This document shows positions 1 through 32,306 of a DNA stretch of 32,306 bases, one piece after another. Source of the DNA: Jimgerdemannia flammicorona. Taxonomy: Eukaryota. A program made the translations under genes and the position numbers. The stretch covers positions 1 through 32,306 of the forward strand of contig RBNJ01000355.1 in the NCBI GenBank assembly GCA_003990765.1, in the 5' to 3' direction. Every line of letters starts with the position of its first letter. Position 1 is the stretch's first letter. Below the pieces are notes generated by a model. That model had not been told where the DNA came from. It saw only the letters and a program-made list of their open reading frames with translations, and ran no database searches.

Positions 1-10
1 AAAAAAAAAA

Positions 11-3170: not shown

Positions 3171-3189
3171 AAGACCAACAACCAGCCTA

Positions 3190-5735: not shown

Positions 5736-5808
5736 ATGCACCCTAAGGACTCTGGTATATATCACTTATCTCAAGATATATCTACTATCTAAATAATGAT
5801 CCAGAAGA

Positions 5809-6312: not shown

Positions 6313-6331
6313 AGAATAGTCTAGAGACTAG

Positions 6332-6555
6332 TGTGGTCTGATATAATAAGTAAATAACATAGTATAGCCAGGTGATATAAATACTCAATATATTATATTA
6401 TATCTAGTTCACCATATAGACTACTACTCATAATTAGCTAAAGATACTAAATCAGATTTATTGATCTGTATCCTAAGAATATACCTGTTTCCATTAGACA
6501 TATCTATACATATATATGTACTAGATATAGTTGTACCTACCAGACATACCTGTAT
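6332..6555 (+). repeat. Candidate start of the Gypsy-1 3' LTR (continues at 24064 after the LINE block)
   Basis: TGTGG start follows a purine-rich tract (decayed PPT-like aaagaatagtctagagactag) just after the last coding remnant. The LINE A TSD shows that 6555 and 24064 were contiguous. No second LTR is available for confirmation. Confidence 0.35.
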
Positions 6556-6619
6556 TGTTTTTATTTTTATTTAATTTTTTTATAGTCACAAGGACTTCTA
6601 CTTTATTACCAAACTATCT

Positions 6620-9600
6620 ATTTTATACTAATGTAAATGAATTCCTCACTCAATCTCACAGAGAAGCTCCTCTCTCCATTTATCATTTCTCTAAAATATT
6701 GCTATCTCCTCTACTACTCCAATCCTCCCCCCACTCTTCCTACAAATTGTCTCCACTAATCACCTCCAATATTCCCTACTAGCACTCCACCCCCTCTACC
6801 ACCCATTCAACAAGTTCATCATCAGCCACTCCCATCTAGCAACTCTCACCCCCAGCATCAGCTGTTGACCCTCCTCAAATATATACAACTAATGTCTGGC
6901 AAGCCCAACCCAAATAGCCGGCACTCATCTCAAAGTCAGTCACTCATCCCACAACCTCTCCACCAGACTCCTCCAGAGGTCACCCCACCTCTCTCCCACC
7001 ATCGGCCCTGGTGGACACACTTTCAGCTACTTCTCAATCACTCCCCAAAAGTCATCCATTACCTCACACTCTCCTAACCAATGTTCAGGAGTCTGTACTA
7101 CTCCCCCCTCCTACCTGATGTTCAGACACTCATTACACTCCCAGGTACCTCCTTCTACCAAGTTATCTGACCAGTAGTTTAACATTACATTATACTGTAG
7201 AGGTCTCTACCATACTACCCAGAACTTGGGGTAAATCCAACTCATCACCTGCTTGCTCTACAACCAAATGCCATTTCAATCCCACTCTTCTCAAATCTCT
7301 ACCCCCTACCATACCTTAGACCACAGATCTCTTCTATGCTCAAAAAGACACTCCATGCCATCCTATAAGCTAAAGTCATCTACTGGTGCCCCCCCAACAG
7401 AAGGCAGTCCCACCTCTATATCTGGGGTCCCCAGTCCTCCTCCCCCTCATCACCCTGCCTTTGGAGACCAATATAATGAGCCCCATCAACCACCTCTCAT
7501 CTGAATCCTCTAAAGAATATCCTCTGACTCTCCTCCAAAGTCACCAGAGATAGAAGGCCCCCAGTCACACCATGGAGGGAGAACTGGACCTCCCATACCA
7601 TCTGCATAAGAGGAACCCACTCTCTGCCCCTCAACTCATGAGCTCACTTCAGCCACCATATCTATAAACAATGAGGATACTTGGAAAAATCCACCAGACC
7701 CAGTTCTCCTCAGTTCACTGGTATGATCAATACCTTCCAGCCAATCTGACTCCATTGCCCTACCCAAATCTAGATCTTTGCCATCTTCAAAAATCTCTTG
7801 ACCATCTATATCAGAAAGTTCAAGTGGTACCCCAGGTACCATAGCTTGGGCAACTAGTATATATTCAGCACTATCACTCTCTCTGCCAGAGATACGACCA
7901 CCCCACCCCAAGAAAGTACTTCCCCACTCTGCTAACCACTGCACCCACTATCTAAGAGGTAATAAGGAGCTATATACTGAAAGTAGATTCTCAGATAGTG
8001 AACAGTCTCTCTTGTAGAGATAATTGTTCCAATCATATCCCCACTTACTATCCCTCCTTCCAATACCAAAGTCTCACATTTATGCCAGTTGAGCTTAGCA
8101 CTCAAGTACTCTTCATACTACTTTACCACACCTTAGAGTACCACTATATCCCTGCTGATCTAACCTGATTACTATATCATCAGTGAAGCCACCCACCTTC
8201 CAATTAACCCCCAGAATGTCCAACCCCCCCAACTTTAACTAAATCCTATCCAAAAGAGGCTCTTGGGACAGTACATACAGGATCAGCAATAGTAGATCCC
8301 CCTGCAGCACTCTTCTGCCCAGAGAGAACAAAACCACCCTGTGCTTATTCACTAGAATTGCTGCCCAACTTTCTTCCAGCAGACTGACCAAGGCTGGACC
8401 CCTATATACTTTAGTACCCCTTCTAACCATACTCACCAGACCCTGTCCTAAGCCTTCTCCTGGTCCAGAAAAACCAGTCATCTATCTACCCCAGTAGTGT
8501 GAGCTCCTTCAATGACACCATGTACCTAGGCTGTCACATCTCTGATCAGATGTCTCCCTACAAATCTTCTCTGCTGAGCCCCCAGTACTTACTGAGTTAC
8601 TCCTTATAGCCTAGTCACAAGTATCTTTATAACCAGTCTGTGATCTATATCCAGAAGCATGATCAGTCTTCAGTTTTTCCACTTCTCTCTCCTTCTCTTA
8701 TTCATAAACAGCAGAGCCACAAGACCCAAGCCCTGTCCTCCAATCTATATCTCTGAGCTAATGACTTCATTGCACATCTCCATCATCTCCTCCAGAATCA
8801 GCTTGACTTTTGCTATCTTCTTCCAAAATCCCATAGTAAGCCATCTTCCCCTGATGCTATTTCTGAGCTTATATCTGCTGAATTACCTTCTCTTGGACAG
8901 GAGTGCTAAGTTCACCTAAGTTCTCTGCTAGATCAAAGTATCAGTCCTCCAGGTGTCTGTCAATGTCTAGTGCCTCTACCCCCCCTTCCTCCTTACTCCA
9001 TAATTGCCCCCACCATATACTCAACTGGTCCAAAATCTCTAGTATCCCAACAACCAACTCCCCTGCTTCATCTAATACTCCCTTCTATGTCTGCAATACT
9101 CTCCTCACCTACAGAAGTTATGATAAATACTTTATAGGTCTCTTCCTCTCCTCTAATCCCTACCATATCAGCTGGACCACCATGTTCTTTATCTGTAGGT
9201 CTTCCTCCTATCTCAGTAATTCCTTCAACACCTCTACTCTCAGCCTGATCTGCTGAGTTCTCCAATATCTCTCCTCACCATCATTTAGTAGATCTATCCA
9301 TAATGTTAACAATCTCACCAATCTCTAGAAGGTCTACCTCTCTTACTTTCTCTTCTGAGTACTATATGACCTTCCTGTCTTCCAATAGTACTGTTGCATA
9401 TCTGATTTCAATCTCCTCTAGTGATCCCTAATCACCAACCCCTTTACTCTCCAGTTAAGTATTTAGGAGCTAATGTCAATTACTCATATATTCTATAAGG
9501 AGACCTCCTTTAGCAATAAGATATTCAGGCACCAATGTCCAGGCCCCACCCTGCTTCCCCAAATTGCCCCTCTTCTAGAAGACCCCAGTGATCTGACCAC

Positions 9601-10266
9601 AGGTACTAAACAGTTTTCAAAGTTCTCTAAATATTGACTCTTCAGCATTCAGCAGTCAACATCCAGTCAATCCTCAAGTCCAACCCTGTCACCCAATAAG
9701 TACAGACAATACAATCTCCCCATCTAAGTCTCCCAGTATTCACTAATGAACTCAGATGTTCAACTTCCTTCCAGACTTCCACACTATCACTCCTACCAGC
9801 TATCATCTTCTCTTATCAGATCTGTCTATCTTCTCATCATATATCATATTAAAGTCCTCACCTAGACAGTCAATTCCTATCTCTACCAATGCTCCAGACT
9901 CTTGTAGCCCTTGAATCTATTCCACTCTCTCTCCTCTTTCCACTAGACAATAATATGATCCAATAGTCAAGAGTCTTCAGCCTGGTCTCTTTTAAACTCC
10001 TTACACACTCTGCTATCCCAATGTCCAATATTCCTAATATCCTCCTTGCTCTTTCTAACCAGAATGCCCACACACCTATACCATATAGCCACACTACCCC
10101 ATATCTTTGCCCAGTCTAGAGTATCTAAGTCTCCATTATAGCCAACTTCCTGTAGTAGGAACAAATCAGCATCCAGTCCCTTCAGCCAGCAGAAGATATT
10201 TCTATATCTCACTGCTCCTCATAGCCCATTGAAATTCAAAGAGAAGATTCTAGTTATATTATTTAT
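6620..10266 (-). pseudogene. LINE A ORF2 (AP endonuclease-RT-zinc knuckle), decayed
   Basis: Start ATG>ATA. RIFSLNFNGL*G...IFCWLKGLDADLFLLQE (APE), FLDQEKA, RVLQGDLL (QGDPLSP motif), FTDD (FADD), C-terminal PEHW..EC. Confidence 0.88.
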
Positions 10267-10289
10267 ATTGAATAATATTTATTAAAGAA

Positions 10290-11853
10290 TAGTTGTCCAC
10301 TCTATAATCCATACTCACTACATATATGTATCATCTGTAATATTCAGGTTCCTTTCTGCCTTACTCATCTGTCTCTCTCTGCTGAGCCTCGAATGCCTCT
10401 AAGATCTCCTGATAATCAGCACTATCCACTTCTTCTATATCTGTCCAGTACTTCTCATTCATTACCTACCACTTTGCCAGTCCCTTTCTTGGTCCCACAG
10501 ATATGAAGTTCAGTCATTCATAATTATCAGAAGTACTGCCTCTCTTTCATCATCTACTTGATATACCTCAGCTTCTAGCAAAGCTACCATTATCTTATCT
10601 CAGAGTTTCTGTGAGATCTCCTCATCTTGCAGGATTTCTCTCCAGTATCTCTTGCTGTATACCTGAAGTTCTCTCCCCCCAGCTCCTTAGCCACTATATT
10701 TGCCAGTGTTTTCCACAGCTATTTCTCCTCATCAACAGCTTCCTTCACTCTCTGGGCCACCCCCTTTCCCCCTTCCACCTGCTCTCTCTCTGCATTCATC
10801 CTTACTAACTCATCTTATTCCTCCTCTAGCAGATCCTGCAGTTTGTTATCTCCTCCAGCCCCTGCCAGCACTCTATACTGAGGGCACTCCTCCTCAACTA
10901 TCTCTTCATCTTCCACTACTGTACTCTGTTTGAAGCCCCCACTCTTCCCCAGGATCTCCTTTGGTACTGCTCCCTTCTCCCCTGTCCAGACCCAGATACT
11001 TACTCTCAACCCAACATCTTCAGCAGCAATTCCCCCCTCTACCCCCCCTCTCAACTTTGCCAACAGATCCTTCTGAATTCGCCTCTCCTGTACTCTTTCC
11101 CAGGCTGTCTGATCCAGTCACACCTTCTTGCTATATATGTATGATCTCTACTACCATCTTGGTCTCAAACTCTTTCCAGGTCAATCTCTTCTACTCAGCA
11201 GCCCCAGCCAGATCCTCTAATATCTCCAGCAAGTTCTCTTCTTCCTCTGGCATCTCTTTTACTCTCAAGGCCTTATACTCTACAGATCCCCATTTGAGGA
11301 CCACTGGCTAGTTTCTCACTTTCTCCATATTCTCATTGCCTGCCAGCTATACTCTGACATCTATGTCTCTTGTCCTGAACTCTATACCTTTCCATATCCA
11401 AAATCTAATATTCATGATATTTCCATACTTCTGGATGGCCTCTACAATCAACTCTCTGACCATCTCCTTCAATACTATAGGTATATCCACTACTATCAAC
11501 TGTACCACTTGGGGGTTCCTGTATAAGCACTGAGCCATAGGGATTGCCACCCTCCACTCACTACCACTTCCTTCTCCATTACTCCCAGCAGCACATCCTC
11601 TTTCTCAAAGCCCACCTCTACCCCTTTCAAATTCTTCAAAAATTTCACCAAGGCTGCTCCTTTCACCTCCTGGAAAAGAAGCCCTAGAATCATCCTCACA
11701 GTTATGACTAAGCCTCAGAAATACAATGTAATAGTAAATTCTGACCTTAATTTCTTGAGTAACAGAACTGCTATCAGGCCCATTATACTATCTACTAGAT
11801 CTCTGAGTCTCATGCCCACTCCATATCTAGATCCATTATCAACTATCACATCT

Positions 11854-11856
<3 letters not shown>
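10290..11856 (-). pseudogene. LINE A ORF1, central and C-terminal part
   Basis: RMILGLLFQEVKGAALVKFLKNLKGVEVGFE and NPQVVQLIVVDIP...YGNIMNIRFWIWKG are homologous to ORF1 of B and C. Confidence 0.8.
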
Positions 11857-11889
<33 letters not shown>

Positions 11890-11934
11890 GTTACTTGGAC
11901 TCCAACATTTATTATCAGTCTATTAATAAGTTTA

Positions 11935-14900
11935 CATTATACCTTCCCACTACCCAATCCCCATAGGGGGGTCACTCTCCCCACCTTTACAAACAAAGAC
12001 CACTTTCTCACCCACGATTCCAACCCTTCCCCCACTCTGCCTACATATTTTCTCCACCAAATGACACCTTCAACTACCCTGCAGCTCCCAACCCAGCCAC
12101 CAGCCTGTCAAGGTGTCTTCCATAAGGCTATCCCACTGCAGCAGCTTGACCTCTAAGCCTAGTCTCCTCCCATCCTTAAAAACAAATAACCAGTAACTGG
12201 CCAGCCCCTCCCAAATGGCCAACACCCAGCCTAATGTAAGCCATTCCTTCCCCACCCCCCCTACCAATCTATCTCTCAAATCCTCTCACTGCCCCTGCAT
12301 GCCAACTCTACTACACACTACCCCCAAATGAACCCTGATGGTCTGCCAAAAGGTACTAAGTACCTCACACTCTCCTAGCCAATGTTCAGGCATCTGTACA
12401 AATCCCCCTTCCTGCCCTACATTATAACACTCTTCACAGTTGAAGCAGCCTCCCTCGACAAGGTGATCTGAGTGGAAGTTGAGCATGACATTCTGCCTCA
12501 GCATGCACCACCAGGCCACCCAGTACTTCGGCAGCATCTACCTCCTCACCTCAGCACTCTAGGCCCAAATGCAATACCAGTTCCACTCCTCACCGATTCC
12601 TACTCCTTGCCAACTACTGGGCCACAGATCCTGGCCAGGTCTCCATTGGCATTTGACCCCATCACTAATGTCAAACTCAATTAAGAGAATGCCACCTAGT
12701 AACACTCGGTCCCATCTCCACATTGCCAGGTCCCAAGCTGCCTCTCCTTTATTTCCCTGCTACCAAATTCCAATGTGGTGCACCCCTTCTGCCACTCTCC
12801 ACTAGAAGCCTTTGTATCACAATTGTTTGGTATTTCAAAGGCCAAAAAATGCTAGGAGATCACCAGTCAAACCCTTAGGTAAGGACCTCATCTCCCAGAC
12901 TTTCTGCAATAGGGAGACCAACCTCCCCCTCTCAACTCCACCACTCTCTTCATCCACCACGCTCTCAAGCAGTGCAGCCTCTTAGGAAAGTCAACCAGCT
13001 CAAGTCCCCCACTTGCCACTGGTAAGGACAAGACCTCCTAGCTGATCTGACTCCATCTTCCAGCCCAGATCCACCCCTTGGCCAGCTTCATCAATCACTT
13101 CACTGCCCAAGCTAGGAAGTCCAGATAATAAGCCAGATACTATAACTTCGGCAGCCAATACACATTCAGAATCAAAACACGCCCAGCCAGAGACAATTGG
13201 CGACCCCCCCAACTCTGCAGAGCCTCCTCCCAGATTCCAACCCACTGCTCCCACCAAAGTCTGGGCAAAACTGACCCTTATACTGACAGATAAATACCCA
13301 AGTACCATACTGCCTCACCAGTAGGGACAATGGTTCCAATAATTTCCCCTCCCACCAGACCATTGCCTAACACCATTGCTTTGTACTTATGCCAATTAAG
13401 CTTAGTCCAAGAGTTCTTCTCATACCACTCCACTATTTCCTTGAGCCTCTCAATATCTGCAATTGATCCCAGGCTGACCACCATGTCATCTGCAAAGGCC
13501 CCTACTTTCCACTCAATGCCAAAGATAGAGAGCCCCACTATCTTCTGCCTGATTCTGTCCATGAAGGGCTCCAGGGAAAGGACATACAAAATGGGGGACA
13601 GTGGGTCCCTCTGGAGCACCCCCCTACCCAGGGGAAATACTACCCCTCTGTGTCTATTACACATGAGTGCAGCCCTACTTTCTTCCAGTAGGCTGACCAT
13701 GGCTGATCTGAACTGGTACAGGACCCCAATCTTATCTAATACTTTCGCCAGCCAGACCCACTGCACCCAGTCATAAGCCTTCTCCTGGTCCAGAAAGGCC
13801 AGTCACCCATCCAGTCCACTGGCTCATGCCCCTTCAATAACTCTATGAACTCAGGCTGTGCTGTCCCTAATGAGCCAGCCTCCCAAAAAGCCCCTCTGCT
13901 CATCACCCAAGACTTGCTGGGCCACCTTTTGCTGCCTTGCGACCACTACCTTGGTAACCAACTTTCTGTCCATATCCAGCAACATAATCAGCCTCCAGTT
14001 CTTCCAGTCCTCTTGCCTTCCTTTGTTCTTATAAAGCAATGTCACAAGCCCCAGATCCTGTTCCCCCACCCATCTCCCCATCTATAGAATCCAATCACAC
14101 AGTGCCATTATCTCACACAGTACTCCTGGAACTTCCACCATCTTCTTCCAGAAGTCCCAGAGCAGACCATCCTCCCCAGATGCTGTACCCAATGTTGTCA
14201 TGGCAAGAACCTGGTAGATCTCCTCTTCTTGAACTGGCAGCACTAATTCACCCAGCCCTTCTACTTGTGTAGGGTGCCAATCCTCCAATGCTTGGTCAAT
14301 GGCTTCAGTATCTGCCCCACCCTCCTCCTCACTCCACAATCCACTCCAATGCTCCTTTAATGATCCAAGAATGTCTTGTACACCATGCACCAATATACCA
14401 TCTGCATTAAGCACTCCCTCCCACCTTAATTGCACCCTCCTCGCCTGAAGGGCTCTTGTTAGAAACTTTGAGGGTCTCTCTCCTTCCTCCAACCCCTGCC
14501 AATGAAGCCATACCACCAGACCCTGTACCCTTGCCTCTTCCTCTTTCTGCAACACCTATTGTAGTTCAACCACCTCCATTTTTGCCCTTATCAATCTCCA
14601 ATCCTCCTCTCTCTCCAATGTCATTAGTCTCACCCAGTCCTCCAAGAGTCTAGATAGTCTACTAGAAGCCCATCACACCCATCGCCTCCTCTGCTTCCCA
14701 GCCTCCTTGGCAGCCTCACTCCAGTAGGTCCTGGCTATCTCCTTCATCCTCATCCACCGAATACCAATTGGGGCACCTTCCTGCCTCCAGTACTCCACTT
14801 TTAGTTGAATATCTTCAGCCCACTCATCCCACTAGACCTTATCATCTAATAAGGAGGAGTTGAGATGCCAATATCCAGGCCCATCCCCACTCTCCCCAAA

Positions 14901-15605
14901 ATGTCTCTGCTCTAAAAGCTCCCAATGATCCAACCAAGGACACCATTCTACCTCCAGTGATTTCAAGACATCTAAGCCCCAGCAGCTGGCTGTCAGAGTC
15001 CAATCAATCCACATCCCCAGGCCCCCAGCCCAGTGCATATACACCCTCCTATCCCCCCAATACTCTCTACCCACATCTACCAGAGCACTCAGTCTTTCCA
15101 CCTCCTTCCATGCTGCCAGTCCTCTACTCTGATCCTCAGCTCCCCATCCTCTATCAGTTCTATCTCTCAATACATCCCAGACCATATTGAAGTCCCCTCC
15201 GAGTACATCCACCCCAACCTCTGTAAGAATTCCACTCTCCTGTAGGCCCTTCACCGAATCCACACACTCACCCCATATTGTAGAGTAGTAACAGGAGCCC
15301 ACTGTGACCAGCTCCCAACCTGTGTGTATCCACTCTCCCCAGACCAATCTATCCCCCTAACTCTGCATATCCCTTATCTCCCCTCTGCCTTTCTGCATCA
15401 GAATCCCAACCTTGCCCTTCCAGACTGCCTCACCTCCCCATTCCTTCTTCCATCCCAGTCTATCCAAATCATTCTCACACCTGACATCCTGCAAGAGGAA
15501 GAGATCGGCCTCCAATCCCTTCAGACAAGTAAAAATGTTCTTATGTCAATAAGTATCCCATAACCCATTCATGTTCAAAGAAAAAATGTTGGTTGTACTA
15601 TTCAT
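11935..15605 (-). pseudogene. LINE B ORF2 (APE-RT-CCHC), premature stops
   Basis: MNSTTNIFSLNMNGLW..., DLFLLQD, VLGGDFN, IDWTL, WLDHW, GPGYWHLNSSLL, GERPSKF, NWRLIMLLDMDRK, FLDQEKAYD, GVLQRDPLSPILY, AFADD, YLGI, CEEC...PEHWLGEC. Confidence 0.93.
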
Positions 15606-15624
15606 AGTGAAGAATAGTGTGGTA

Positions 15625-17663
15625 TCAAGTTCTTTCCTACTGCTCCATATTCATCTCCTCCTGCACCAAGTCCAGATTATGTTCTGCTGTCACTGCCTCC
15701 TCTTCAGGCCTCTGAGCCTCCAATCCAGCCAACAGCTCATTCATCTCCCCATCTGCCCTCTCTTCAAATTCCTCACAGTACTCCAGGCAGGCCTCCGGCC
15801 AGAGCTACAATCCATGATACTTGGTCCAGCAGTATTCAGCCCTCTCTCCAACAACTTCCGCCATCTCTACCTCTCACTCCTTATCTACCTCATAGCCTTT
15901 CTCCTCCAGATATACTACAAGAATTTCCGCCTTCAATGCCTTCACCACCCCCTCCCCCTGCAGGATCCCCACCCAATACTCATTGCTCATTACTCTCAAA
16001 TCCACCTCTCCCAGCTCCTTAGCCACTAGGTTGTTCATCATCCTGCACATCCAAAGTAGGTTCTCTACCTCCTTTCCTCCAGGGGTCTCTGGTCTCCCAC
16101 CATCCAGCATTGTGGTGTCAGCCCCAGCACTTGCAGTCTCATTCCACTTCACTGGGATGTCCACCAATTCCTCCTCACCAGCTGCCACCACTCGTCCCCC
16201 TTTTGCCACCTCCAGAACTCCAAATTGCACTCGCTGGGCCCCCCACATTGGCACATCCTCCACCACCCTGCTCTGGGAAGCTGGGCCTCACCTGATAAGG
16301 GAAGTAGGGGTAGGGGAGTCCTCCCATGCCTTATCCCAAACCTCCAGCATACCATCAGTATATGGATTATTGCCAGTCACCTCTCTGTTCTCACTGGTCT
16401 CCTTCCCAGCACTCCCACTACTCTTGCCTGCCCAGACACTCCCTTTGGCCCCCCCCCATGTCCACCATTCCACTCATATCCTTCAGAGACCTACTCACCA
16501 TCTTCACCAGCAGTTTCTCCTATCTCTTATGCCCCTGATCTTGTACCCACTGCTCCTTGCTCACTTGAATCCACCTCACATCTACCACCTCCAAGTGCAT
16601 CACCTCCTCAAAGGCCTTCCAAGCCTTTGCCTGCTGCTCCACTACACCACTCAACTCTTCCAGTGCTTCCAATAAATCCTCTTCCTCCTCCTCACTCCTC
16701 TTCACCCTTGTCACCTTATACAAGATTGCCCCCCAGACCATTCTGGAAGGCCAGTCCCTTGCCTTCCCAGTGGCTTCTTTCCCTACCAGCCAAATCCTCA
16801 CATCCACATCCCCAGTCCGGAGCAAGGTCCCCTCCCAGACTCTGAATCCAATATCCACCATCTCTCCATACTCTGCCATGACCTCCTCGACTCTCCTTCT
16901 TGTCTCCACTGCCATCACTGTGGGCACCCCTTTCACCAGCAATTGGACCACCCTGGGATTCCATTTCAGGTAGCATGCCATCAGAATACACACCTCCCCA
17001 ACTATCAATCCAACCTTCAGTGCTTCCTCCAAAGGCTCAGCCTCCTCAAAGCCCACCTCCACTCCCTCCAGTCTCTTCAAAAACTTTATGGACACTGCTC
17101 TGGCCACCTGCTTAGCAATCAGCCCCAGCACCATTTTCACCATCACTGCTAGGCCCTGGAAGCACAGTGTCACTGCGAACACTGAGATCGATTTCTTGAG
17201 TAATAGTGCCACTGCCAGGCCTGTCACACTATCTGCCAAATCTCCCTATCTTCCAAGCCCCAGTTGCTCAGCCATGCCATCCAAAGTCATATCTGGATTT
17301 TTTTTCCAGATTAGCAGTCCCATCTCCATCAGCCATAATGCCCCCCCCAGCCACTACACCTCCAGCCCCACCACCCCCCCTGCCAAGAGCTACTCCCCTC
17401 TGTACTGCTACCTTCTCTGTTTCCTTCCCTTTCCTCAGCCAACCCTCCAGCCCTGATGTCTGCATTCTCCCCTTCACTATCTTGGCAAAGCTTGCTCTCC
17501 CAGATCCCTGTCCTCCACTACCTCCTCCTCCCCTTCCATGTCCACCTGCCAGCAGCTCCCTCATACCTCCCCCCAGACCAGGGCCTCTCCCCACCTACTG
17601 CCAGTCGAACACACTCAGGCCACCCTCTCCAGTATGTACCTCAGATTACCTGTTGGTTGCCAT
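15625..17663 (-). pseudogene. LINE B ORF1 (Gly-rich N-terminus, RRM-like core, coiled-coil)
   Basis: ATG at 17663. Pieced from ORFs 17268-17594, 16520-17239 and 15874-16266. An extra T in the T8 run (17298-17305) shifts the frame. It lies directly upstream of ORF2. Confidence 0.85.
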
Positions 17664-17778
17664 GTTGCTAGTCTCTTTTCTCCAAAAATAATATTGTAGT
17701 TGCTTTCCAAAGATTGTGTAACCCGAGTGGTACCAGAGAGAGTTGATCACATCTGGATTTTTTTCCAGATTGGCAGTC

Positions 17779-17854
<76 letters not shown>

Positions 17855-17899
17855 GTCACTTGGACTTCCCTTTATTACTGCCATCCATAATAATAATAA

Positions 17900-20800
17900 T
17901 AATACAATATCACCCCATCCCCTCAACTGATGCCCCTCAGATCTACTCCTCCACTCTCCACACCTCTCTGCTGGAGGATGATCCAGTCACCCACCACCTG
18001 AATCCTCTCACCACTTTTCTGTACAATACACTATACCAAACCTCTGTGACTCCCCCCACTGGGCCCTTACCCTTGCCACCAGCCATTCAAAATATCCAGT
18101 AGTAACTATTCCCAACATGCCACCCTATCTCCAACTCCAACCCACTGACCCTCCTCAAATCTATATTTCCAATGCCCAGCCATCCCAACCCATATGGCCA
18201 GAGCCCAACCAAAGGTCAGCCATTCATCTCCTACCCCTCCAACCAACCTATGGTGGAGCTCTCCCCACCTCCTCTCTTCTCCTCCCTCCAGGGCTCACAA
18301 CTCTAAACAGTCTATGATATGATACCAGAATACCCCCAAAATGTCACACTCACTAAGCAAGTGTTCAGGCATCTGTATTACTCCCCCTTCCTGTCCAACA
18401 TCAAATCATTCCTCACACTCAAATGTGCTACCAGCCACTAAGTGCCCAGACCAATAGTTCAATATCACATTCTACCATAGGACTCACCACTATACCACCA
18501 AAAACTTGGGGGGTAGCTACTACATCACCCACTTGCTCCAAATCCAGAGCCCATTCCAGTCCCACTCCTTGCAAATCCCAACCCTCTGCCAGGCTTCAGG
18601 CCAAAGGTCCCCACCTAAGCCCCGCAAATACTCCATTCTATTTCCAAGCTGAAAGTCCTCCCCCAAAACACTGCCCAGCAGTAGCCTGTTCCATCTCCAC
18701 ATCTGTGGTCCCAATCCTCCTCACCCTCCGCACCCTGCTCCCAAAGTCCAATTTTCTTATCACCATCCACCATCTCCCACCAAAAGCCCTTATACTGCAT
18801 CCTCCTGCTCTCCTCCAAGGCCACCATTGCATGCAGGTCTCCAGAATCTCGACAGGGGGAATACCAGGCCTCCTATACCCTCTGCATGAGCAGTACCCAC
18901 TCCTGATCCCTCAGCTCACTCACTCTCCTCAGTCACCAGGCTCTCAAGCAGTAAAGACATTTAGTAAAGTCCACTAAACCCAGTCCACCTCTTTCCACTG
19001 AGAGGGTAAGAACCTTCCATCCTATCCGACTTTGTTGCCCCACCCAGATCTATGATCTCACCATCTTCAATATTCTCCTGACCACCCAAGCAGAGAAGTC
19101 CAGATAATACTCCACATATTACAACTTCAGCATCCAATATACATTCAGCACCATCACCCTTTCTGCTAAGGATATGTGCTGACCTCCCAAGTACAAAAGC
19201 ACTGTACCCCACTCCAGGAGTCATTAATCCCACCAAGCACAGAGAAGAAGGGACCCAAACACCAAAAAGTAGATCCCCAGGTAATGAACTAGTTCTCCTG
19301 CTGGCACTACCATCCCAATCATATCACTGCCAATGATCCCACCACCTAGCACCAGAGTCTTGAATTTGTACCAATTGAGCTTAGCACCAGAGCCCTTCTC
19401 ATACCACTCTACTGACCTCCTCAATTCCCCCACATCTGCCAATGAGCCCAGTCCAACCACCATGTCATCTGCAAAAGCCCCCACCTTCCAATTTATCCCT
19501 AGAATGTTCAACCCCCCAATTTGATGCCAGATCCTGTCCAGTAGGGACTCTAGGGAGAGGGCATACAAGAAGGGTGACAAAGGGTCTCCCTGTGGCACCC
19601 CACGACCAAGAGGGAAAGTTACACCTCTGTGGCCATTGATGACCAATATAGCCTCTAACTATTTTGCAAAAGACTGATCAATGACTTTCAGAACCCCAGG
19701 GAAACACCAACTCATTTGAGCACCCCCTCCAACCAGACCCTCCTCACTCTATCATATGCCTTCTCCTGATCAAGAAAAACCAATCTGCCATCCACCTCTT
19801 CAGCCCGGGCCCCTTCAATCACACCATGTACCCAAGCCATCCTATCTTGGATCAACTGGCCCTGACAAATCCTTATTGCTCCACCCTCAGAACTTGCTGA
19901 GTGATTCCCTACAGTCTCAGCACCAATATCTTAGTCACCAGTTTACAGTCTATGATAAGTAGTATGATCAGCCACCAGTTCTTCCAATCCTCCTATCTCC
20001 TCTTATCTTTGTAGAGCAAGGAGACCAGCCCTAGATGCTGGCCCCCAATCCAAGTTCCAGACCAAAGAACCTCACTACACATTTCCACCATTTCCTCCAA
20101 TACCTTGGCCACTCCAGCCATCTTCTTTCAAAAATCCCAGAGAAGTCTATTTTCCCCTGGAGCCTTGTCATAGCCAAGACCCTGCAAACTTCTTCTTCTC
20201 TCACTGGATCCCCCAGAGTCACCAGGCCCATTGCAGGGTCCAGATACCAATCCTCCAGCTGCCTCTCAATGGTCAAAGCATCCTCTCCCCCTTCCTCTTT
20301 ACTCTACAAATCCTCTCACTGGGTCCTCAGCAATCCCAGGATTGCTAGAGTCCCCACCACCATCTCTCCATCTACATCCAGGACCTCATCCCACTGCTGC
20401 TTAGTTCTCCATACTTGTAATATTCATGATAAAAGCCTAGTGGGTCTCTCCCCCTCCTCAAACCCCTGCCACCTCAGCTATACCACCATCCCCTTCAGCC
20501 TAACCTCTTCCTCCCTTCATAACACATCCTTAAGCTTCTTCACTTCCTCTTGGATCCTCACAATATGCCAGTTGGCCACCTCCCTGTCTTCTAGCACCCC
20601 TGCCCATCTCCCCATGAGTGCTCCCAATTGCTGTGAGGTCCATAGCACCCTCCACCACCACTGAGCACACCTGCCTCTCCTGGCTTCCCTCCAGTACCCC
20701 TGAGTACTCGCTTTCAGCCTCCTCCAGCAGTCTCCAATCACCAGACCCTGGTCCCACCATCTCCCAATTTTTCAAATAACCTCTTTCTCCCAGTCCACCC

Positions 20801-21576
20801 ATACAGCCCCATCCTCCAACAAAGAAGAATTTAGCCACCAATGTCCAGGCCCATCCCCACTTCCTCCAAATCTCCCCCCACCTAACAAACCCCAGTGATC
20901 TGACCATAGGCACCAAACCACCTCCAGTGTAGTCCAGACATCCACTCTCCAGCATTCTGCCATCAATATCCAGTCTATCCTGAAATCCAATCCTGTCACC
21001 CAGTGAGTATAAATTTGATGATTGTCCCAAAACTGTCTCCCAGAATCAACCAGAGAACTCAACCTCTCAATCTCCAACCACTCATCCAACCCACCACTTC
21101 TGCTCCTCATTCCTCTCCTACCATTAGTTCTGTCCATCCCCTTGTCCCACACCATGTTGAAGTCACCCCCCAGGCAGTCAAACCCAACCTCACCCAAGAC
21201 ACTGGCCTCTTTCAAACTTCAAATCCAATCCACCCATTCCCCTCTCTCTGCTGGGCAATAACATGACCCAACTGTCAAAGAGCTCTATCCAGGCCTCTTC
21301 CATACTCCCCACACCAACTGAGACCCCCAATGTCGAATGTCCCTGATGTCCCCCATCCCATTCTGAACTAGGATATTCACCTGCCCCATCCACACCACAG
21401 CCCCCCCCCCATTCCTTAGTCCAATTCTGTAAGTTCACATCTACCTTATAACAGATATCCTGCAACAAAAAGAGATCTGCCTCTAGTTCCTTTAGCCATC
21501 CAAATATATACTTTCTCCTAGCTGCCCCCCATAACTCATTCACATTCAAAGTAAATATTCTAGTTATACTGTTCAT
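17900..21576 (-). pseudogene. LINE C ORF2 (APE-RT-CCHC), premature stops
   Basis: MNSITRIFTLNVNELWG...EADLFLLQD, CLGGDFN, RIDWIL, WSDHW, GPGHWWLNSSLL, FLDQEKAYDRV, GVPQGDPLSPFLY, AFADD, YLGI. Confidence 0.93.
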
Positions 21577-21608
21577 AATGAATAATGTTTTGGATTTGAG
21601 ACCCCAGC

Positions 21609-23523
21609 CTAGTATTTCATACTCATCTCATCCCCAGCCAGATCTAAGCACCCCTCTGCTTCCAAGTCCCCCTCCACGACAGCCTGAGCATCCAATAACT
21701 CTAAGATTTCTTGACATTCCACCCCATCCACCACCTCCATCTCTAACCAATAGTCCATGCAGACCACTCTCCACTTCTCCAATCTCTTCCTCAAGCCCCA
21801 CAAGTAAGCTGCCCAATCATTCATGATCTCTCTAAGTTCCTCCTCTCTCTGATCATCGATCTGGTATTCAACTAATTTCAAGAGGACTGCCAGGATCTCA
21901 TTCCTCACCTTTCATGGCACCTCCTCACTATGAAGGATTTCCTCCCAATGCCTCTTTTCTATAACCCAGAAGTCCTCTTCCCCCAGCTCCTCAGCTGCCA
22001 CCCCTTCCAGAGTCTTCCACAGCCACTCCTCCTAATCCACTGCCTCCACCATACCCTGAGCAACCTGATCACCCCCCACCTTTGGGTCCACCAAAGTGCT
22101 CCTCCTTACTGACTCATCCTATTCCTCATCTGGTATATCCAGCAACTTCTCCTCACCCCCTGCCCCACTCAGGACACTATACTGAGGGTGAACCCCTTTG
22201 CTCATTTTTGTATCTACCTCTACACCACCCTCCCTCTCCTCCCTTGGTCCATCCTGGGTCCCACCTTGGGCAGTCCCATGTTCTCCTGCCCAGACACTTG
22301 CACACAATCCTGCTCTCCCATCTCCTTTACTGCCACTAGCCCCACCACTACTCAACTTCTTCAGTAGCTCTTTCTGGATTCTCCTCTCCTGCATCTTCTC
22401 CCAGGTCCCCTGATCTATCTGGATCCTCTTCCTGTTGACTACTTCCATCACTGTCTTGGCTTCATACTCCTTCCAAGCCAATCTCCTCCTCTCGACTGCA
22501 CCTGTCAGATCCTCCAGAGCCTCAAGCAAATCCTCCTCCTCTTCCTGAGTCTCCTTCACTCACAAGATCTTGCACTCCACTTGTCCCTACTTCAGGGTTG
22601 CCAGCCAATCCCTCATCTTCCCCATGTTCTCCTTTCCAGCCAGCCTCACCCAAATGTCAACATCACCAGTCCAGAGCTCTGTACCCTCTCAGACCTTGAA
22701 TCTGATATCCACAATCTCACTATATTCCTTGACTGCCCCCACAATCAACTTTCTGGCCCTCTCTCTTGACACTGTAGGAAGATCCAGCACTGTCAACTGC
22801 ACCACTCAGGGGTCCCAGCACATGCACCTGGCCATAGAGACTACAACCCTGCCCACTGTTACTCCCTTCTCCATGGCAGCCAGCAATACTTTCTCTTCCT
22901 CAAACCCCACCTTGACCCCTTCTTTCTCCTTCAAAAACTTCACTGACACTGCCCCTTTTGCCTTCTGTGCCACCAGCCCCAAGATCATCCTTGCAGTCAC
23001 TGCCAAGCCCCTGAAGCACATTGTGATGGCAAATTCTGACCTTGATTTCTTGAGTAATGGTGCTGATACCATGCCCATCACCCCATCTGCCAGGTCCCCA
23101 GACCTTGTGCCCACCCTCTGTCCTGAACCATCAACCACTGTTACATCTGAATTTTTTTCCAGATCCCCAGCCACAGCCCCATCAGCAGTCACATCTCCAG
23201 CCCCTACTCCCCCCCCTCTCCTACCACCAGACACTCCCCTGGGCACTACTCCTATCCCCCAGCAGTAGCTGTTGATGCCTTCCCCAGGCCCAGCCAACCA
23301 TCAAGACCAGAGGCAATTCTCCCATCTTAACCTTGTTAGCAAAGGTCAACCTCTCTCCTCCTCGCTGCCTCAGACTGCCCCTCCCTCCACCACCAGTGCC
23401 TTGGCCAGCCATTGAGGCCCCCAGTATCCCCAAACCATCTCCTCTCCTCCCCACCTGTTGCCAGCCAAAGACCCCACTGCTCCCCTGGACAGCACGCTCA
23501 CCAGTACAATCATTGCCATCTAT
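21609..23523 (-). pseudogene. LINE C ORF1
   Basis: Probable start ATG>ATA at 23523. Pieced from ORFs 23221-23454, 22806-23297, 22119-22559 and 21609-21908. Homologous to ORF1 of A and B, and ends 32 nt before the ORF2 ATG. Confidence 0.85.
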
Positions 23524-23634
23524 GTTGATAGTTGTTGATCACCAAAAATGTTGTAAAAAGTGTTGTCTGAGTCTTGTGTCACCCGAATGGTACTGGTGAA
23601 AGATGTGTCCATTCTTTTTGGCAGTCCCCTTGCT

Positions 23635-24049
23635 ATCAGTAGTCCTGCTCTCTCTAGCTACTACTCTCCCAGCCCCATTACTCTCACTGTTATAGGCCAC
23701 TCTACCAGGCCCTATATCTCTCACCATCTCCTTGTCCTTCTTCAGCCAATCCTCCAATCTAGTCAACAGAGATCTCACCTTAATCTTGTCAGCAAAGCTC
23801 ATCCTTCTGGATCACTACCTTTCAGCTCTAGCTCTATTTTTTCCACCTCCTCTTCCACCCATAAGAGAATCCAGCAGACTCCACCCCAAGCCATGACTCT
23901 GCTCTACATACCGTCAGTTGAATGCACTAGGGCCACCCTGTCCACCATGTACCTCAGAATGCTCATTAGTCAATATGTTGCTAATACCCATTCTCTGTTA
24001 TGAGAGCTGTCTGAAGTTTGTGTAACCCAAATATTACTGGAGAAAGGTG
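23635..24049 (-). mobile_element. Displaced 5' end (5' UTR and ORF1 N-terminus) of LINE A
   Basis: SFADKIKVRSLLTRLEDWLKKDKE...DSKGTA aligns with LINE B SFAKIVKGRMQTSGLEGWLRKGKE...DGDGTA. It ends in the shared 5' motif (tgtgtaacccaaatattactggagaaagg) next to the TSD. Confidence 0.88.
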
Positions 24050-25398: not shown

Positions 25399-26457
25399 AT
25401 GAAGACCACGTTATTTAAGGAATCATACTCCACCTCAGAGATCGGCACCAAAGAACCAAGTACCTACCCCATAATGCCTCCCATTCACCAATCCAACCAG
25501 ACCTCCCGCTGCTCTACCCCTTTGCCTGGCCCAAAGACCCTGATCTTTGAAGCTATCAAGAAGGCCATCTGGTGCCTAGATACTTCCGAACACTTGAACT
25601 TCTACACCAAGGACCTTGGACACTTCATCAACTACTAGTATATAATGACCCAACAGCTCAAAGATACTACCGAATGAATGACCCTCTGGCATGACTATGA
25701 AATTGGACACTGCCTTCGCAATGAGACTCAAGAAGACGACCAGGAAGACCTCATTACCGAATTGTTAACCACCAGCCGGCTAATCAAGAGAGCCCTCCAT
25801 GTCCACCAAATCTTCTGCCATATTCCCTGTGCTATAGCACACTTACAAGGAGTGACTGCTGGCAGTCTTGCCCACCTCTCAACTGAAGATGCAGACTGGA
25901 TAGAATCAGAAGTAGCCAACTCTATTGGCAGCAACTGCATCGCCGTAGGAAGCCAACAAACCAAACCTACTCAGCCAGGTTTCCACACCACCCCACTCCG
26001 AGACAACCATCAAGGTCACCTAATGAGTCTTATAGAGATATTTGAAGGACCACCCATTACCATAGAAGCACTCATTGGAGCTACCCCAACTACCCACCAC
26101 CCTGTCAGCCACAATTCACATCTCATCATTTGGGAACTGAATCAAGAAGAAGCCCAAGAGGTCCCCATCTTTGAAGAGGAAGCCCAAGAACTCCAAAACC
26201 CTGCCCCTGAAGAAACCCCCTCTGATACTGAAACTGACAAGTCTTCAGAAGAAGAAGAGGAGCAACAGAGAGTCTACTAGTCCTCTGTCTGCATTCAAGC
26301 TATTCAAGGGTTGGAGAATGTTGTTGAAGATGACTGGCCACTTTTCTACCCCCTCACCTCTTGGCTGGTGCTCCCACTCTTTGAAGAACAGGATGAAGAA
26401 GTCACAATCCAGCAAGATGATTGGTCCACTAACAAAGGGTACTTTACCATTCAGTGA
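25399..26457 (+). pseudogene. Unknown ORF inside the putative LTR (about 350 codons, acidic C-terminal part)
   Basis: ORFs 25339-25638 and 25678-26280 and the downstream sequence are in one frame, separated only by single TAG/TGA stops. Composition is protein-like; no family recognised. Confidence 0.6.
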
Positions 26458-26585: not shown

Positions 26586-26750
26586 CTGTTTCCAGCATTG
26601 CTATCCAGTGCTACTGTTTTTAGCGTTTTGTCAGCAAGTCTGAATCCAGCATTGCTACCCAGCTCAACCAAATCCAGTGTTGCTATCCAGCACAACTGTT
26701 TCCAGCATTGCTATCCAGTGCCACCGTTTTCAGTGTTTTGTCAGCAAGTC
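26586..26750 (+). repeat. U3-like tandem repeats: two 55-bp copies flanking two shorter units; core tccagcattgctatccag x4
   Basis: 26586-26640 and 26696-26750 differ at four positions, all C/T. Confidence 0.85.
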
Positions 26751-27626: not shown

Positions 27627-27676
27627 AAAGTTTTCAAAAGACTTAACCATTTGGCTCAAGAACCCAGCTATCTACA

Positions 27677-29500
27677 GTGGAGAACTTAGCAGGACCAAGT
27701 CAGCAACCAAACCAGGGGCAGCAACAGCCCTCCTCAGCAGAAAAGAAAGCCCACACCATTGTCAGAACAGTAGCCAGGACCTTATTCAACACCAATAGCC
27801 AGAAAACCGAATTAGAAGAAAGAAGTTATCCAGATTACGGTTTGACTTCAAGAGAAAGGAGACAACTCAGAGGACAACCAGAACTGCCCCTTCAGATCCA
27901 AGACTTAGGCCAAGAAGAAGAAGAGGATATCCCTGAGGAGTATCAGACCCTTATCCATAGGAAGAACTCAGACAGAAGTGATGACATAACTACTGTTGTT
28001 ACTCAAGTCACTCCACTAGACTGGGTATACTTTGAAACATCAGAGGGAGAAGAGGACTATCATCCATATCAACTGGAGCAAGATGACGATTGGGGATCAG
28101 ACTACCAAAGGGACAAATTCAACCTATACTATTATTCAGACAGTGACACAAACCCACAACAAGATGAACAAGACCTCACTACTTCACAACAGCAAGGGGC
28201 AGATGAACTCACTATCAGTTATATCAGTCCACTCCCACCATCAGTTGCTCAAACTTCAGTACCCTGGTCACTCACACCTTGCCACTATCACCAGTCAATC
28301 AGAAGATCTCCACCACTACCCAGGACTTCAACCCCAGCATTAATTAGAAGAGCCAGATTACCCTCACCCTCACCAAGACACTGCCCTCTGCCAGCACCAC
28401 TAGATCATCAAGTACTAGCACCACCACCTTCCCCACCACCCCGAGAATCTGCCAGATCCCCCACCCCTGAACAATACTCAGATAGTGAAGACGAGCCAGA
28501 CATGAGCTACCTTCAGAAGTTCCATGGTGTAGACAATGAAGATATCGAGGAATTCTTTGGAGAAATTGAAGTCCAAGCAGCCACCAAACAATGGGATGCT
28601 GCAAGAAAACTCAGAATTGTGGAGTCACTCCTGAGAGGACCAGCCCTACAGAGGTATAATCAAGCCAAGCAAGCCAGAGGAGGAATCCATGCAGAGGAAC
28701 TGAATGACAGCCTCCAAACTGATAGAAACCATGTAGCAAGGTACATGATTCACAAAGCCTGGCTCCGTACCTAGTTCAATGGATTCGAGCACCAACAAGA
28801 AGCACAGGAGGCTTTGACCTATATGAGCCAAGCTGTCAATGAAACTCCCAAAAGTTTCTACCATCGGATTCAAGCTCAAATGATCAAGGTGAACCTTCAA
28901 CCGGCAGTCCAACTGGCTTTAGCCTCAACTACCTTCCTCAATGGCTTATACCCAGAACTCCGAAGGCAAGTTATCAGGATAGGATATCGAAACATTGAGC
29001 AGCAAGTTGCTGGAGCACAAGGATGTTGGGAAGCAGATTATAGATCAGTACAACAAGTACAAGGGTATCCTGAGCCAATCCGAGCTGTAACCCCAAGGAC
29101 CAGAGGAACAACCATGGAGCAAGAGAATGTCTTCCTCAGAGCCCAGATAGCCAACTATGAGAACAGACCAGCACCCACAAATCCGACTCCATTCAGGCAA
29201 CCACAGCAGCAACCGCCATCAAGAGTTCAAGAAGACCCCATGACAATGCTCACCAAGCAAATCAGGGACCTGGCCATCGTGGTTGCCCAGCTGAACAACC
29301 AAGGTAGAAGACAACAAGACTACCGTCATGATAACAGACCAGACTACCAGCAACAAGACAACAGAGGTCCTGCCCCTGCACTACCAGCTGCAACTACAGT
29401 CTCATCAGTGACTGGTTCCTATGGTCCCACCTACTTCAACTGTGGAAATCAAGGCCACATCCAGAGGAATTGTCCAACGAACCAATCCACCCAGTCCAAT
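27677..29500 (+). pseudogene. gag: Gag: long acidic/Pro-rich N-terminal extension, capsid, CCHC nucleocapsid
   Basis: Capsid starts MSYLQKFHGVDNEDIEEFF..., with LLRGPALQRY, QAVNETPKSFYHRI and FLNGLYPEL. The knuckle is TYFNCGNQGHIQRNCP (first Cys tgc>tac). One in-frame TAG at 28772. Confidence 0.9.
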
Positions 29501-30154
29501 GACAGAAATGTCAACCTCTTTCAGATAGATGAAGAGACTCAGGAAATGGAAGAAGAAGCAGCCTGGCTCCAGAGTCAAGAAGATGACATCTACCCATACT
29601 TTGAGGCTTTTCCATCCAAGGTGACATGGGAAGCTGCCCCTGCAGAGACCAGAGGATGAGGAAGACCACGAAGGAACCCCCCACCTCAACTACCAGCAAC
29701 AATATCCACAGGCAAGCATCCGCGACATGGCCATTCTTCCTCAGACACTCCACAAGAACAGAAGAAGTGAGTTAGAAGAGATACTCCTGAACCAGAGGCT
29801 GGACCATCTAGGACAACCCTCAGCTCTACCCTGCCAGACCTTGAAGAAGATGAGCATATGAGCATAGAATCTTCAGCTGACGAAATGCCCATCAGGAATG
29901 AGAGACTACACCTCAAGAGACCAAGACACTGAAGGAGCAGCAAGCCCCATGCAGCAGCCTCACTTTGGGAACATATCCGCCTACAGAATGCTGGTCTTAC
30001 AGTTGAGCAAGTCCTCAAGAATGCACCAGAGGTCAGGCGAAAATTCCTGAAAGAAGCCAAGGAAGATACCAAGAGACTTCCAGTCCAAGGACCACACACT
30101 CAAGAACCTAGCACTATCCACACAGTCCATGAGAGCCAGCGACATGAACATTAA

Positions 30155-30525
30155 TCTACAAGACTCGTCAATGGAAAAGTGCATGGTGAAAATGCCAGAA
30201 TTCTCATTGATACTGGAGCAGCAGTATGCATCATCACCCAAAGGATGTTGGAGCGAATTGGATGAGGAATAGATGAAGGAACCAAAGCAAGAGTTATCAT
30301 GGCCGACAGATCAGCTTCCACACCCCTTGGACTTGTCAGAGACATCCCCATTCAAGTCGGAAAGACCTGCCTCAATGTACCCAAAGCTGTCGTGACCCCT
30401 GCAACCTCCTATGACCTGATCCTGGGAACTGACTGGTTAAGCCAAGTTGGAGCCAATATAGATATCAAGAAACAACTCCTGGTCTTCTCCATTCATGGAC
30501 AGAAGCACAAGGTGCCCATTGACTC
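30155..30525 (+). pseudogene. pol: Retroviral-like aspartic protease
   Basis: ARILIDTGAAVCII (DTG at 30209-30217), ADRSASTPLG and YDLILGTDWL, in the same frame as Gag. Confidence 0.93.
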
Positions 30526-30669
30526 GAAAGAATTATCCAAAAAGACGAATCAAGCCTCAGAAACAGAATGGCAAGGACATGGTGACACCCCCACTACTAC
30601 TGAGGATGAAAGCGAGGCCAATTTTCTACAAGAACTAGGAAGTGATTTCGATGCCCCAAGGGACTAAGA

Positions 30670-31625
30670 AAGCGAACAAGAAGACTCTTTCATTGGAGTT
30701 ATTGGTGTTGAAGGCCTGGAAGAAAGCATTGATAGAGCCATTAATGTAAGGGTAGCACTTGAGTTTGTAGGACCTTCTGCTCAACCACCACCACCACTGG
30801 TAGAAAATTGGATCATGCGAGCCTTTCATCGAGGCATATGTGAACATTTCATCAGCTTCCACTCACCAAGAGATGATTGCAGCAATTGCTGAATCCTGGA
30901 TCTCAAGAAGGTTCCAATACCAGAAATTGATGACAAGGACAAATTGAAGCAAGCACCATCCCACAGCCGAATACAACCTCCAACCCCGAAGACCTTCAAG
31001 AAGACCTATAAGGAAGGACAGAAGATCTTTGCCCGCCAAACATTTGAGTCCCTTACCATCGAAGGAGAAAGCAACAGCTCTTACACTATCACCCGGGCCC
31101 TCCAGATCACACAGCCCACCAATGACAAGTATTGGAAGAGATTCCCCACCAGTAGGGAGGTCAAACAGCGAAATGAAGACTTTGTCAAGAAGGGACATTG
31201 TGATTGCAGAAAAACCTTTACCTGCTACTGGTGTGAACATCGAGATGTTCACCTCAGCAAAGATGTCTACAAGAGCCAAGTCAAGAGAAAGGATCCCACC
31301 CTGCAAGAACCTTGAATTCGCTGGGCCTATTGGAAGTGCAAAGAAATCAACCATGAAGGAGATTGCAAATTCAAGAGCAAGATCTCTATCTGGGACCTAC
31401 CATTGGAAGTTCTTGCCATCATTCACTGGTACTGTCACCCTCATCAAGGAAAGGAAGATATCAACCTTGCCTTCATCCTTATGGAAGCTCTGGACCCTCT
31501 AGGAAAGACTGGATTCAATTACACAAGAAACTCAAAGACAGGAGCTCACTGGCCTTTCTTCAAACTAGAGCGCATGGACTTCTCACCTACAATGGCAATA
31601 GCTGAAACACCATTTCTCAAAGCTC
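30670..31625 (+). pseudogene. Unassigned in-frame polyprotein insert with three Cys/His clusters and an F-box-like motif
   Basis: CEH-x10-CSNC (30839-30889), HCDC-x5-CYWCEH (31196-31240), [Y]WKC-x4-H-x3-C (31328-31366) and SIWDLPLEVLAIIHWY (31385-31432). Confidence 0.55.
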
Positions 31626-31627
31626 AA

Positions 31628-32038
31628 CCAATTATCCAGGTCAAGTTGCTTTCACCCTGGGCACAGCCACCTCTTGTACAAACAGAAGGATCAGTTGGTT
31701 ATGACCTCTGCCTCCCCTACCAAGCAAGAATCTGACCCAGAAGTATGAGGACTTTTGACCTACAGATTGCACTTGCTATACCACCTGGGCATTATGGACA
31801 ATTGGCCTCAAGATCCTCATTGGCAACCAAAGGAGTCACAGTAGAAGGAGGAGTCATCGATCAGGACTACTGAGGTCCCCTGAAGGCCATCATCCACAAT
31901 TCTAGTAGAACCAGCTGATTCTTCAGCCCTATGGAAGCCATCTGCCAAATCCTATTTATCAAGACATCACAGCCAATAATCCAAGAGGTAGACCAACTAG
32001 AAGATACCAACAGAGGACAAGGAGGCTTTGGAAGCACC
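31628..32038 (+). pseudogene. dut: dUTPase domain of Gypsy-2
   Basis: GSVGYDL, GHYGQLASRSSLA, GGVIDQDY*G (DYRG, cga>tga), EAICQILF and RGQGGFGST: all five motifs are present, in frame with Gag-PR. Confidence 0.95.
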
Positions 32039-32306
32039 AATAGAAATCTACGGACACCACCTATCGAGGTTCATTTAGCAACAGTTACTCAATTCCGGCA
32101 AATGAGACCCCACATCTGCCGCCCAATCCGAGTAAGAGAAGACATCCTCCTGCAGCCCTACCAGCAAAAAGGCCTAGATGTGCACCTACCAGTAGAAGCA
32201 AACAACTTGATATTTGCACCATCACTGGAGCTTCAAAAGGAATACCACATCCTCCTGGCTGAAGAATGAATTCATGACCAGATGTCACCAATCCACATCT
32301 CTATCA

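Follow-up and report, generated by a model that had tools for sequence, protein, structure and literature searches.

Extra domains in Pol show how retroelements adapt to their hosts, and the locus considered here raises a question of this kind: what is the long coding stretch that separates the protease (PR) from the dUTPase in a retroelement polyprotein of Jimgerdemannia flammicorona? The stretch lies near the end of the window, i.e., the whole 32,306 nucleotides of DNA that were analysed. An initial annotation placed it at positions 30670–31625 and described three Cys/His clusters followed by an F-box-like motif, proposing an accessory protein that is released by the protease and recruits a ubiquitin ligase against host defences. 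The in-frame stretch between protease and dUTPase is indeed there, and 30670–31625 forms the core of an insert of ~370 codons.

Organization of the element

A single plus-strand frame (27647–32305) encodes the gag-pol of the retroelement free of frameshifts, in the order gag, CCHC knuckle, aspartic protease, the ~370 additional codons, and dUTPase. The gag-like part (27647–30199) contains one CCHC knuckle, YFNCGNQGHIQRNC (29432–29473), which was read from the sequence; the corresponding zf-CCHC match (E 0.0022) is sub-threshold, with 18.5 bits against a Pfam cut-off of 20.8. The retropepsin-type aspartic protease (30200–30520) was likewise recognized from motifs read directly, namely ILIDTGAA (30200–30223), LILGTDWL (30416–30439), and HGQKHKVPI. 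Its Pfam matches, RVP_2 (E 0.0021) and gag-asp_proteas (E 0.00023), both fall under the gathering scores (18.3 versus 20.3 bits for the protease). In P0003, a metagenomic relative described below, zf-CCHC and RVP_2 are both above the Pfam cut-offs. The trimeric-type dUTPase (31625–32047) begins with the strand QPIIQVKLL, carries the motif GSVGYDL at 31688–31708, and matches PF00692 with 97.2 bits (E 8.2e-28; P0001 residues 469–591, ~nt 31670–32038).

A CCHC-bearing gag and a D-T/S-G protease in one frame, with a dUTPase downstream of PR, are features of LTR gag-pol. Assignment of the element to Ty3/Gypsy is plausible, with the reverse transcriptase (RT) falling outside the window: the window ends (32306) ahead of any RT motif, and the segments for RT, RNase H, and integrase, like the 3′ LTR, are situated past its end. 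P0003 likewise stops before RT. A search for paired LTRs inside the window gave none. Downstream of the dUTPase is a further stretch (32069–32305), truncated by the window end, that aligns to residues 1025–1101 of P0003 (BLASTP E 7e-06). Since this stretch is conserved and has neither a Pfam family nor an RT motif, it seems to represent a second unknown module, located between dUTPase and RT.

Relatives of the insert

The 392-residue stretch from PR to dUTPase was compared with 1.84 billion representative proteins, and three matches were obtained, only two of which are genuine relatives. P0002 is a protein of 153 aa with 68% identity that spans the end of PR through the first Cys/His cluster. 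P0003 is a metagenomic protein of 1179 aa, labelled “dUTP pyrophosphatase” by its source, in which gag, CCHC, PR, insert, and dUTPase follow one another in the same order as in the window. The window insert is colinear with residues 641–864 of P0003 (BLASTP E 2e-15), at 25–27% identity. P0004 was dropped as a relative, being a repetitive bacterial-type protein that matched on a low-complexity stretch only.

Other searches added little to this pair. Word-indexed protein searches that started from either insert or from a profile of the two yielded nothing besides P0003, and the ESM Atlas gave no usable match. Scans of metagenome contigs (147 and 124 pattern matches) and of viral contigs (86) produced candidates of which tblastn confirmed none. 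Judging from these comparisons, the insert family is real but very sparsely sampled. Because the informative sequences number only two, statements on its conservation rest on one distant comparison.

Anatomy of the insert

By Pfam and alignment, the insert extends from ~30521 to ~31624. It begins with an acidic, low-complexity linker (30521–30820) that is poorly conserved and includes an in-frame stop at 30665–30667. Cluster 1 follows (30821–30889) with the pattern AF+xGxCxH-x10-CxxC, its Cys and His residues being C192, H194, C205, and C208 of P0001, and a TGA directly after it (30890–30892). The cluster is kept in both P0002 (68%) and P0003 (27%), with 12 of 31 block positions identical to the latter. 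P0002 terminates exactly at the position of this TGA, after a cluster 1 ending in C-x-N-C, which could reflect a shared stop, a parallel stop, or merely the end of its 682-base contig. A variable basic linker (30893–31153), of pI 9.4 in the window and agreeing with P0003 at 11 of 68 aligned positions, leads to the block of cluster 2 (31154–31264). This block, EVKxRxxxFxxxGxCxC-x6(12)-CxxCxxRxVHxSxD, is identical at 18 of 44 positions, has candidate ligands in C312, C314, C321, C324, and H329, and is basic in the window and in P0003 alike (pI 9.1).

A second variable stretch (3 of 21 positions identical) includes a TGA at 31313–31315 and, after it, a third cluster, WKCKEINHEGDCKF (31331–31372). 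All three of the clusters originally described are thus found in the window, but only clusters 1 and 2 recur in P0003; the third falls in a 19-residue segment absent from that protein, a segment that contigs of other copies of the element cross without gaps. Beyond it is an LPxE[VI]xxxI helix, SIWDLPLEVLAIIHWY (31385–31432), present just as the initial annotation described it, with LPLEVLAII at 31397–31423 and 6 of 23 positions identical to P0003. With pI values of 4.3 and 5.7, this LPxE block ranges from acidic to neutral; a second predicted helix follows it. Next is a DPxGxxGxNYTR-x6-WP block (31493–31555; 11 of 27 positions identical; pI 8.5 and 10.9), and ~25 variable residues then separate it from the first strand of the dUTPase, which starts at 31625. 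The module adjoins this first beta-strand in both the window and P0003.

Conservation is therefore focused in four blocks (12/31, 18/44, 6/23, and 11/27) as opposed to the linkers (11/68 and 3/21), and the nine Cys/His residues of clusters 1 and 2 are all invariant relative to P0003. The spacings of these residues are C-x-H-x10-C-x2-C in cluster 1 and C-x-C-x6/12-C-x2-C-x5-H in cluster 2. The nucleocapsid (NC)-type spacing, C-x2-C-x4-H-x4-C (PF00098), occurs in neither knuckle, and the insert has no zf-CCHC match. Comparison with zinc-finger profiles in general, as advised by the initial annotation, revealed no such family in the insert in Pfam at E ≤ 10.

Structure prediction with AlphaFold2 from alignments of two rows gave a mean pLDDT of 31.5 for the P0003 insert and of 49.3 for the window segment running from LPxE to the dUTPase. 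Within the latter, the dUTPase reached 60–83 and the LPxE part, predicted to be helical, 30–44.

Two alternative reading frames over the insert (30863–31502), one of 184 aa on the plus strand and one of 177 aa on the minus strand, were rejected as genes. Such long ORFs arise here because the T-poor plus strand (19% T) eliminates stop codons from every one of the six frames.

The LPxE motif and the F-box consensus

The pattern LP.E[ILV][ILVFYM]..[ILV] occurs once in the 64,608 residues of the six-frame translation of the window. When each insert was shuffled 200,000 times, the pattern arose in 195 shuffles for the window and in 85 for P0003, figures that flatter the motif in that the pattern was written after both sequences had been seen. 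LPLEVLAII of the window and LPVEIYQQI of P0003 occupy aligned positions, which argues that the motif is a conserved feature, beyond chance. The initial annotation had made its proposal depend on conservation of LP.E and of the Cys/His residues across related elements; since LPxE and the nine ligand candidates are kept in P0003 at 25–27% identity, the proposal does not fall on this point.

Helix 1 of the F-box has the consensus L-P-x-E-[IL]-L-x-x-I, and this motif is present in both the window and P0003. It is also what the insert shares with the F-box domain as defined in PF00646, PF12937, and PF13013 (LPxE[IV]LxxI). An F-box would continue with a hydrophobic/Trp pattern ~27 residues after LP, whereas the conserved Trp of the insert lies ~50 residues after LP, and the second predicted helix gives way to the Gly-rich DPxGxxGxNYTR block in place of a third helix. 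The initial annotation had conceded a poor match to the second half of the consensus, and the insert lacks this half of the domain. An above-threshold profile match, a third helix, and a substrate-recruiting domain are all lacking as well.

Profile comparisons agree with this picture. The sole Pfam family that touches the insert is PF13013 (F-box-like_2), in the window copy only, with 13.2–14.4 bits (E 0.04–0.09) against a gathering score of 21.6; the match covers profile positions 19–44, or 26 of 107, which correspond to helix 1 only. For PF00646 and PF12937, the two profiles named for this check, Pfam returned no match in the insert. No F-box family was among the matches returned for P0003 at E ≤ 10, bearing in mind that HMMER filters discard most matches above ~0.1. 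When 177,635 PDB sequences were searched with the profile of the two inserts and with the segment of the window copy, no F-box protein matched at E ≤ 10; the matches consisted of uL15 (E 0.22) and fimbrin (E 0.96). Moreover, H387 and H391 of the window (IIHWYCHPH) are Arg in other copies, as are W182 and W290. Because the two His residues lie inside the stretch matched by PF13013, decay has contributed to the sequence on which the match rests. As compared at the sequence level, F-box identity of the insert is not supported, while the zinc-cluster half of the initial proposal finds support for clusters 1 and 2 but not for the third.

Possible roles of the insert

The insert is probably a real, conserved zinc-binding module of Pol, and the comparisons with P0003 support its being a genuine part of the Pol frame, located after PR and before dUTPase, as opposed to a spacer. 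The reading tentatively preferred here is that of a lineage-specific, putatively zinc-binding arm placed ahead of the dUTPase, which may tether the enzyme to nucleic acid or to the reverse-transcription complex. The tethering role itself is a good deal less probable than the existence of the module. In outline, the module would be a part of Pol specific to a small clade of LTR retroelements that carry a dUTPase. An acidic, disordered linker after the protease would be followed by two short, putative zinc knuckles split by a variable basic linker, and then by a two-helix LPxE segment and the DPxGxxGxNYTR-WP block, which lead into the first strand of the dUTPase. Such a module could act as an arm at the N terminus of the dUTPase, or of an intermediate in PR-dUTPase processing, and by binding nucleic acid or some other component of the reverse-transcription complex it would hold the dUTPase at the site of cDNA synthesis. 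The sequences show that the module exists, in which frame it lies, how rare it is, and that its ligand candidates and motifs are conserved; we infer zinc binding, tethering, and continued attachment of the arm to the dUTPase.

This arm reading is favoured because the conserved four-ligand clusters lie in basic surroundings, are connected by flexible linkers, and lead directly into the dUTPase, and because zinc knuckles beside a retroelement dUTPase have precedents, in Mason-Pfizer monkey virus and in bdelloid Juno elements (see below). Against it is the fact that no profile or structure ties either knuckle to a nucleic-acid-binding zinc finger. Its spacings are also not NC-like, the pLDDT of the insert (31.5 overall in P0003, 30–44 in the window) is too low for a usable model or for any sign of packing against the dUTPase, and the 40 of 170 copy differences listed carry no signal of selection. 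In addition, an acidic or neutral LPxE helix would be more in keeping with contact to another protein than to nucleic acid.

Another explanation is possible but less probable than the arm: the knuckles and LPxE could form some other protein-protein adaptor or processing regulator, binding a part of Pol or Gag or a host factor other than Skp1. Control of PR activation or incorporation of the dUTPase into particles would be examples, and the position of the module directly after the protease, its conserved short motifs within disordered linkers, and the acidic to neutral pI of its LPxE block are all consistent with such a function. However, direct evidence and a known family are both wanting for it, and the same findings fit the arm. 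The module could also be a passenger, i.e., either the remnant of a host gene that lay behind the capture of the dUTPase or a tolerated, functionless spacer. Fungal LTR elements gained their dUTPases independently and from different sources, according to PMC2864245; the linkers are poorly conserved, and the searches gave no relatives besides two retroelement sequences. A passenger is nonetheless unlikely, as nine ligand candidates and three further motifs have been kept at 25–27% identity, and no cellular dUTPase protein with the module was recovered from the 1.84 billion representatives.

The F-box itself remains to be weighed. A degenerate F-box that is released by the protease and recruits Skp1/SCF for degradation of a host restraint factor is favoured by the conservation of L-P-x-E-[VI]-[LY]-x-x-I in the window and P0003, by a second helix predicted, at low confidence, right after helix 1, and by PF13013 being the sole Pfam family to touch the insert. 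We nevertheless consider it very improbable: its best score stays below 21.6 bits and covers 26 of 107 profile positions, PF00646 and PF12937 give no match, P0003 and solved F-box proteins (E ≤ 10) offer no match, and two residues of the matched stretch are Arg in other copies. The block after helix 2 is Gly-rich and non-helical, the sole conserved Trp is misplaced, and what follows LPxE in Pfam is the dUTPase alone, with no substrate-binding domain. Release of the module by the protease and a role in counter-defence are pure conjecture. A related version, in which the two-helix LPxE segment is a truncated, fast-evolving motif for binding Skp1 or a cullin adaptor and the zinc knuckles are the substrate-binding part, is about equally improbable. 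Viral F-box-like proteins include polerovirus P0, and to our knowledge ubiquitin-ligase hijackers occur in plant and animal viruses and never in the polyprotein of an LTR retrotransposon. Were a ligase adaptor to prove true, it would be the first for LTR retrotransposons and would mean that one family of retroelements from soil eukaryotes carries its own ubiquitin-ligase hijacker inside Pol, for counter-defence.

Comparison with known systems

The betaretroviral NC-dUTPase fusion is thought to keep the dUTPase where cDNA is made. An arm anchoring the dUTPase to the replication complex, if that is what the insert is, would represent an independent reinvention of that arrangement. Mason-Pfizer monkey virus has such an NC-dUTPase fusion protein (PMC1802613), and the likeness, which is one of architecture only, consists of a putative zinc-knuckle polypeptide placed N-terminal to a trimeric-type dUTPase via flexible segments. 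The knuckles of Mason-Pfizer monkey virus are the CCHC knuckles of Gag NC, fused to the dUTPase by frameshifting upstream of PR. The window element, in contrast, has a separate gag CCHC, different spacings, and a module located after PR, and it is not a member of the NC-dUTPase family.

A dUTPase between PR and RT is reported for LTR elements of basidiomycetes, including PosPlaTy3-5 of Postia placenta and elements of Phanerochaete chrysosporium (PMC2864245), and for Juno, Vesta, and TelKA of the bdelloid rotifer Adineta vaga (PMC5408684). Juno is further described there as having an extra Zn knuckle adjoining its PR-RT dUTPase (PMC5408684). The window element resembles these elements in having its dUTPase inside Pol after PR, and Juno in having a knuckle beside the dUTPase, although the knuckle of Juno is 3′ of the dUTPase and the window clusters are 5′ of it. 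It differs from the known dUTPase-bearing elements, as far as their available descriptions go, in the ~370 residues with two non-CCHC clusters and LPxE that precede the dUTPase. A zinc-cluster/LPxE module before the dUTPase is not described for the basidiomycete or bdelloid elements in the passages covered of either report (PMC2864245 and PMC5408684). Similarly, among the papers listed by literature searches and judged by title and opening of the abstract, none was relevant to an F-box in LTR retrotransposon polyproteins or to a zinc finger between protease and dUTPase.

LTR elements with a dUTPase are already known from basidiomycetes and bdelloid rotifers, and a conserved, putatively zinc-binding arm before the dUTPase is an addition for which the searches gave no earlier description. 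On present evidence, this is a modest, descriptive finding from a dead copy.

Decay of the window copy

The copy in the window is dead, its in-frame stops resulting from CpG-type decay. It has 13 such stops, comprising ten TGA, two TAA, and one TAG. Those listed with the gag-like part are at 28772, 29657, 29768, 29930, 30152, and 30263 on the plus strand; the three at the insert were given above, and the dUTPase has in-frame TGA codons at 31733, 31871, and 31916. Two of the stops, at 30665 and 31733, are not shared by other copies, in which 31733 is a sense codon. Use of TGA as a sense codon was considered and rejected. One TGA corresponds to the Arg of the YRG motif in the P0003 dUTPase and another to a Trp of P0003, which argues that TGA is not a sense codon here, and 31733 is sense elsewhere.

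Other copies, ~90–97% alike, are present in soil-metagenome runs. Thirteen sequencing runs share words with the element, 12 of them soil metagenomes and one from an organism, each with a word share of at most 0.30; no RNA run is among the 13. In the four runs compared, transitions predominate among the differences, the window reading T or A at sites that are C or G in other copies. For instance, run X1 differs from the window by 32 T>C and 22 A>G changes, against 13 C>T and 11 G>A changes. Since H387 and H391 are Arg elsewhere, the richness of the window in His is partly a result of decay. Among the 40 of 170 differences listed, those in the decay direction comprise ten synonymous and 17 non-synonymous changes (expected synonymous share, 0.32), and those in the opposite direction comprise three synonymous changes and one non-synonymous change, too few to weigh. 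No signal of selection is apparent among these listed differences.

The element has a CpG observed/expected ratio (o/e) of 0.20, TpG/CpA at ~1.3, and TpA at 0.59. Low CpG together with raised TpG/CpA is a signature of CpG deamination and not of Neurospora-type RIP. The latter was rejected as the main cause of decay, as TpA is depleted. The flank at window positions 1–6500 is AT-rich (30% GC), with a CpG o/e of 0.05, and heavy CpG deamination by the host appears to have taken place.

Neighbouring DNA

Upstream of the gag frame by ~0.9 kb is a tandem repeat (26586–26747) with units of 28/56 bp in three to five copies and 64–75% matches. It is preceded by an acidic ORF of 200 aa (25678–26280) that has no Pfam match.

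Farther upstream, the minus strand of 6500–24000 contains three diverged copies of a non-LTR (LINE-like) retrotransposon, arranged head to tail with a spacing of 5.3–6.0 kb and 61–80% alike in the stretches they share. An ORF in this region (13278–13802, minus strand) matches RVT_1 with an E of 5.9e-14. Each copy ends in poly(A), seen on the plus strand as T30 at 11857–11886 and T66 at 17786–17851, for example, and the poly(A) runs directly follow the same 15-base 3′ end, ATAGTCACTTGGACT on the plus strand, with variants. The plus strand of the 6500–24000 region also shows an extreme GC skew of ~−0.5.
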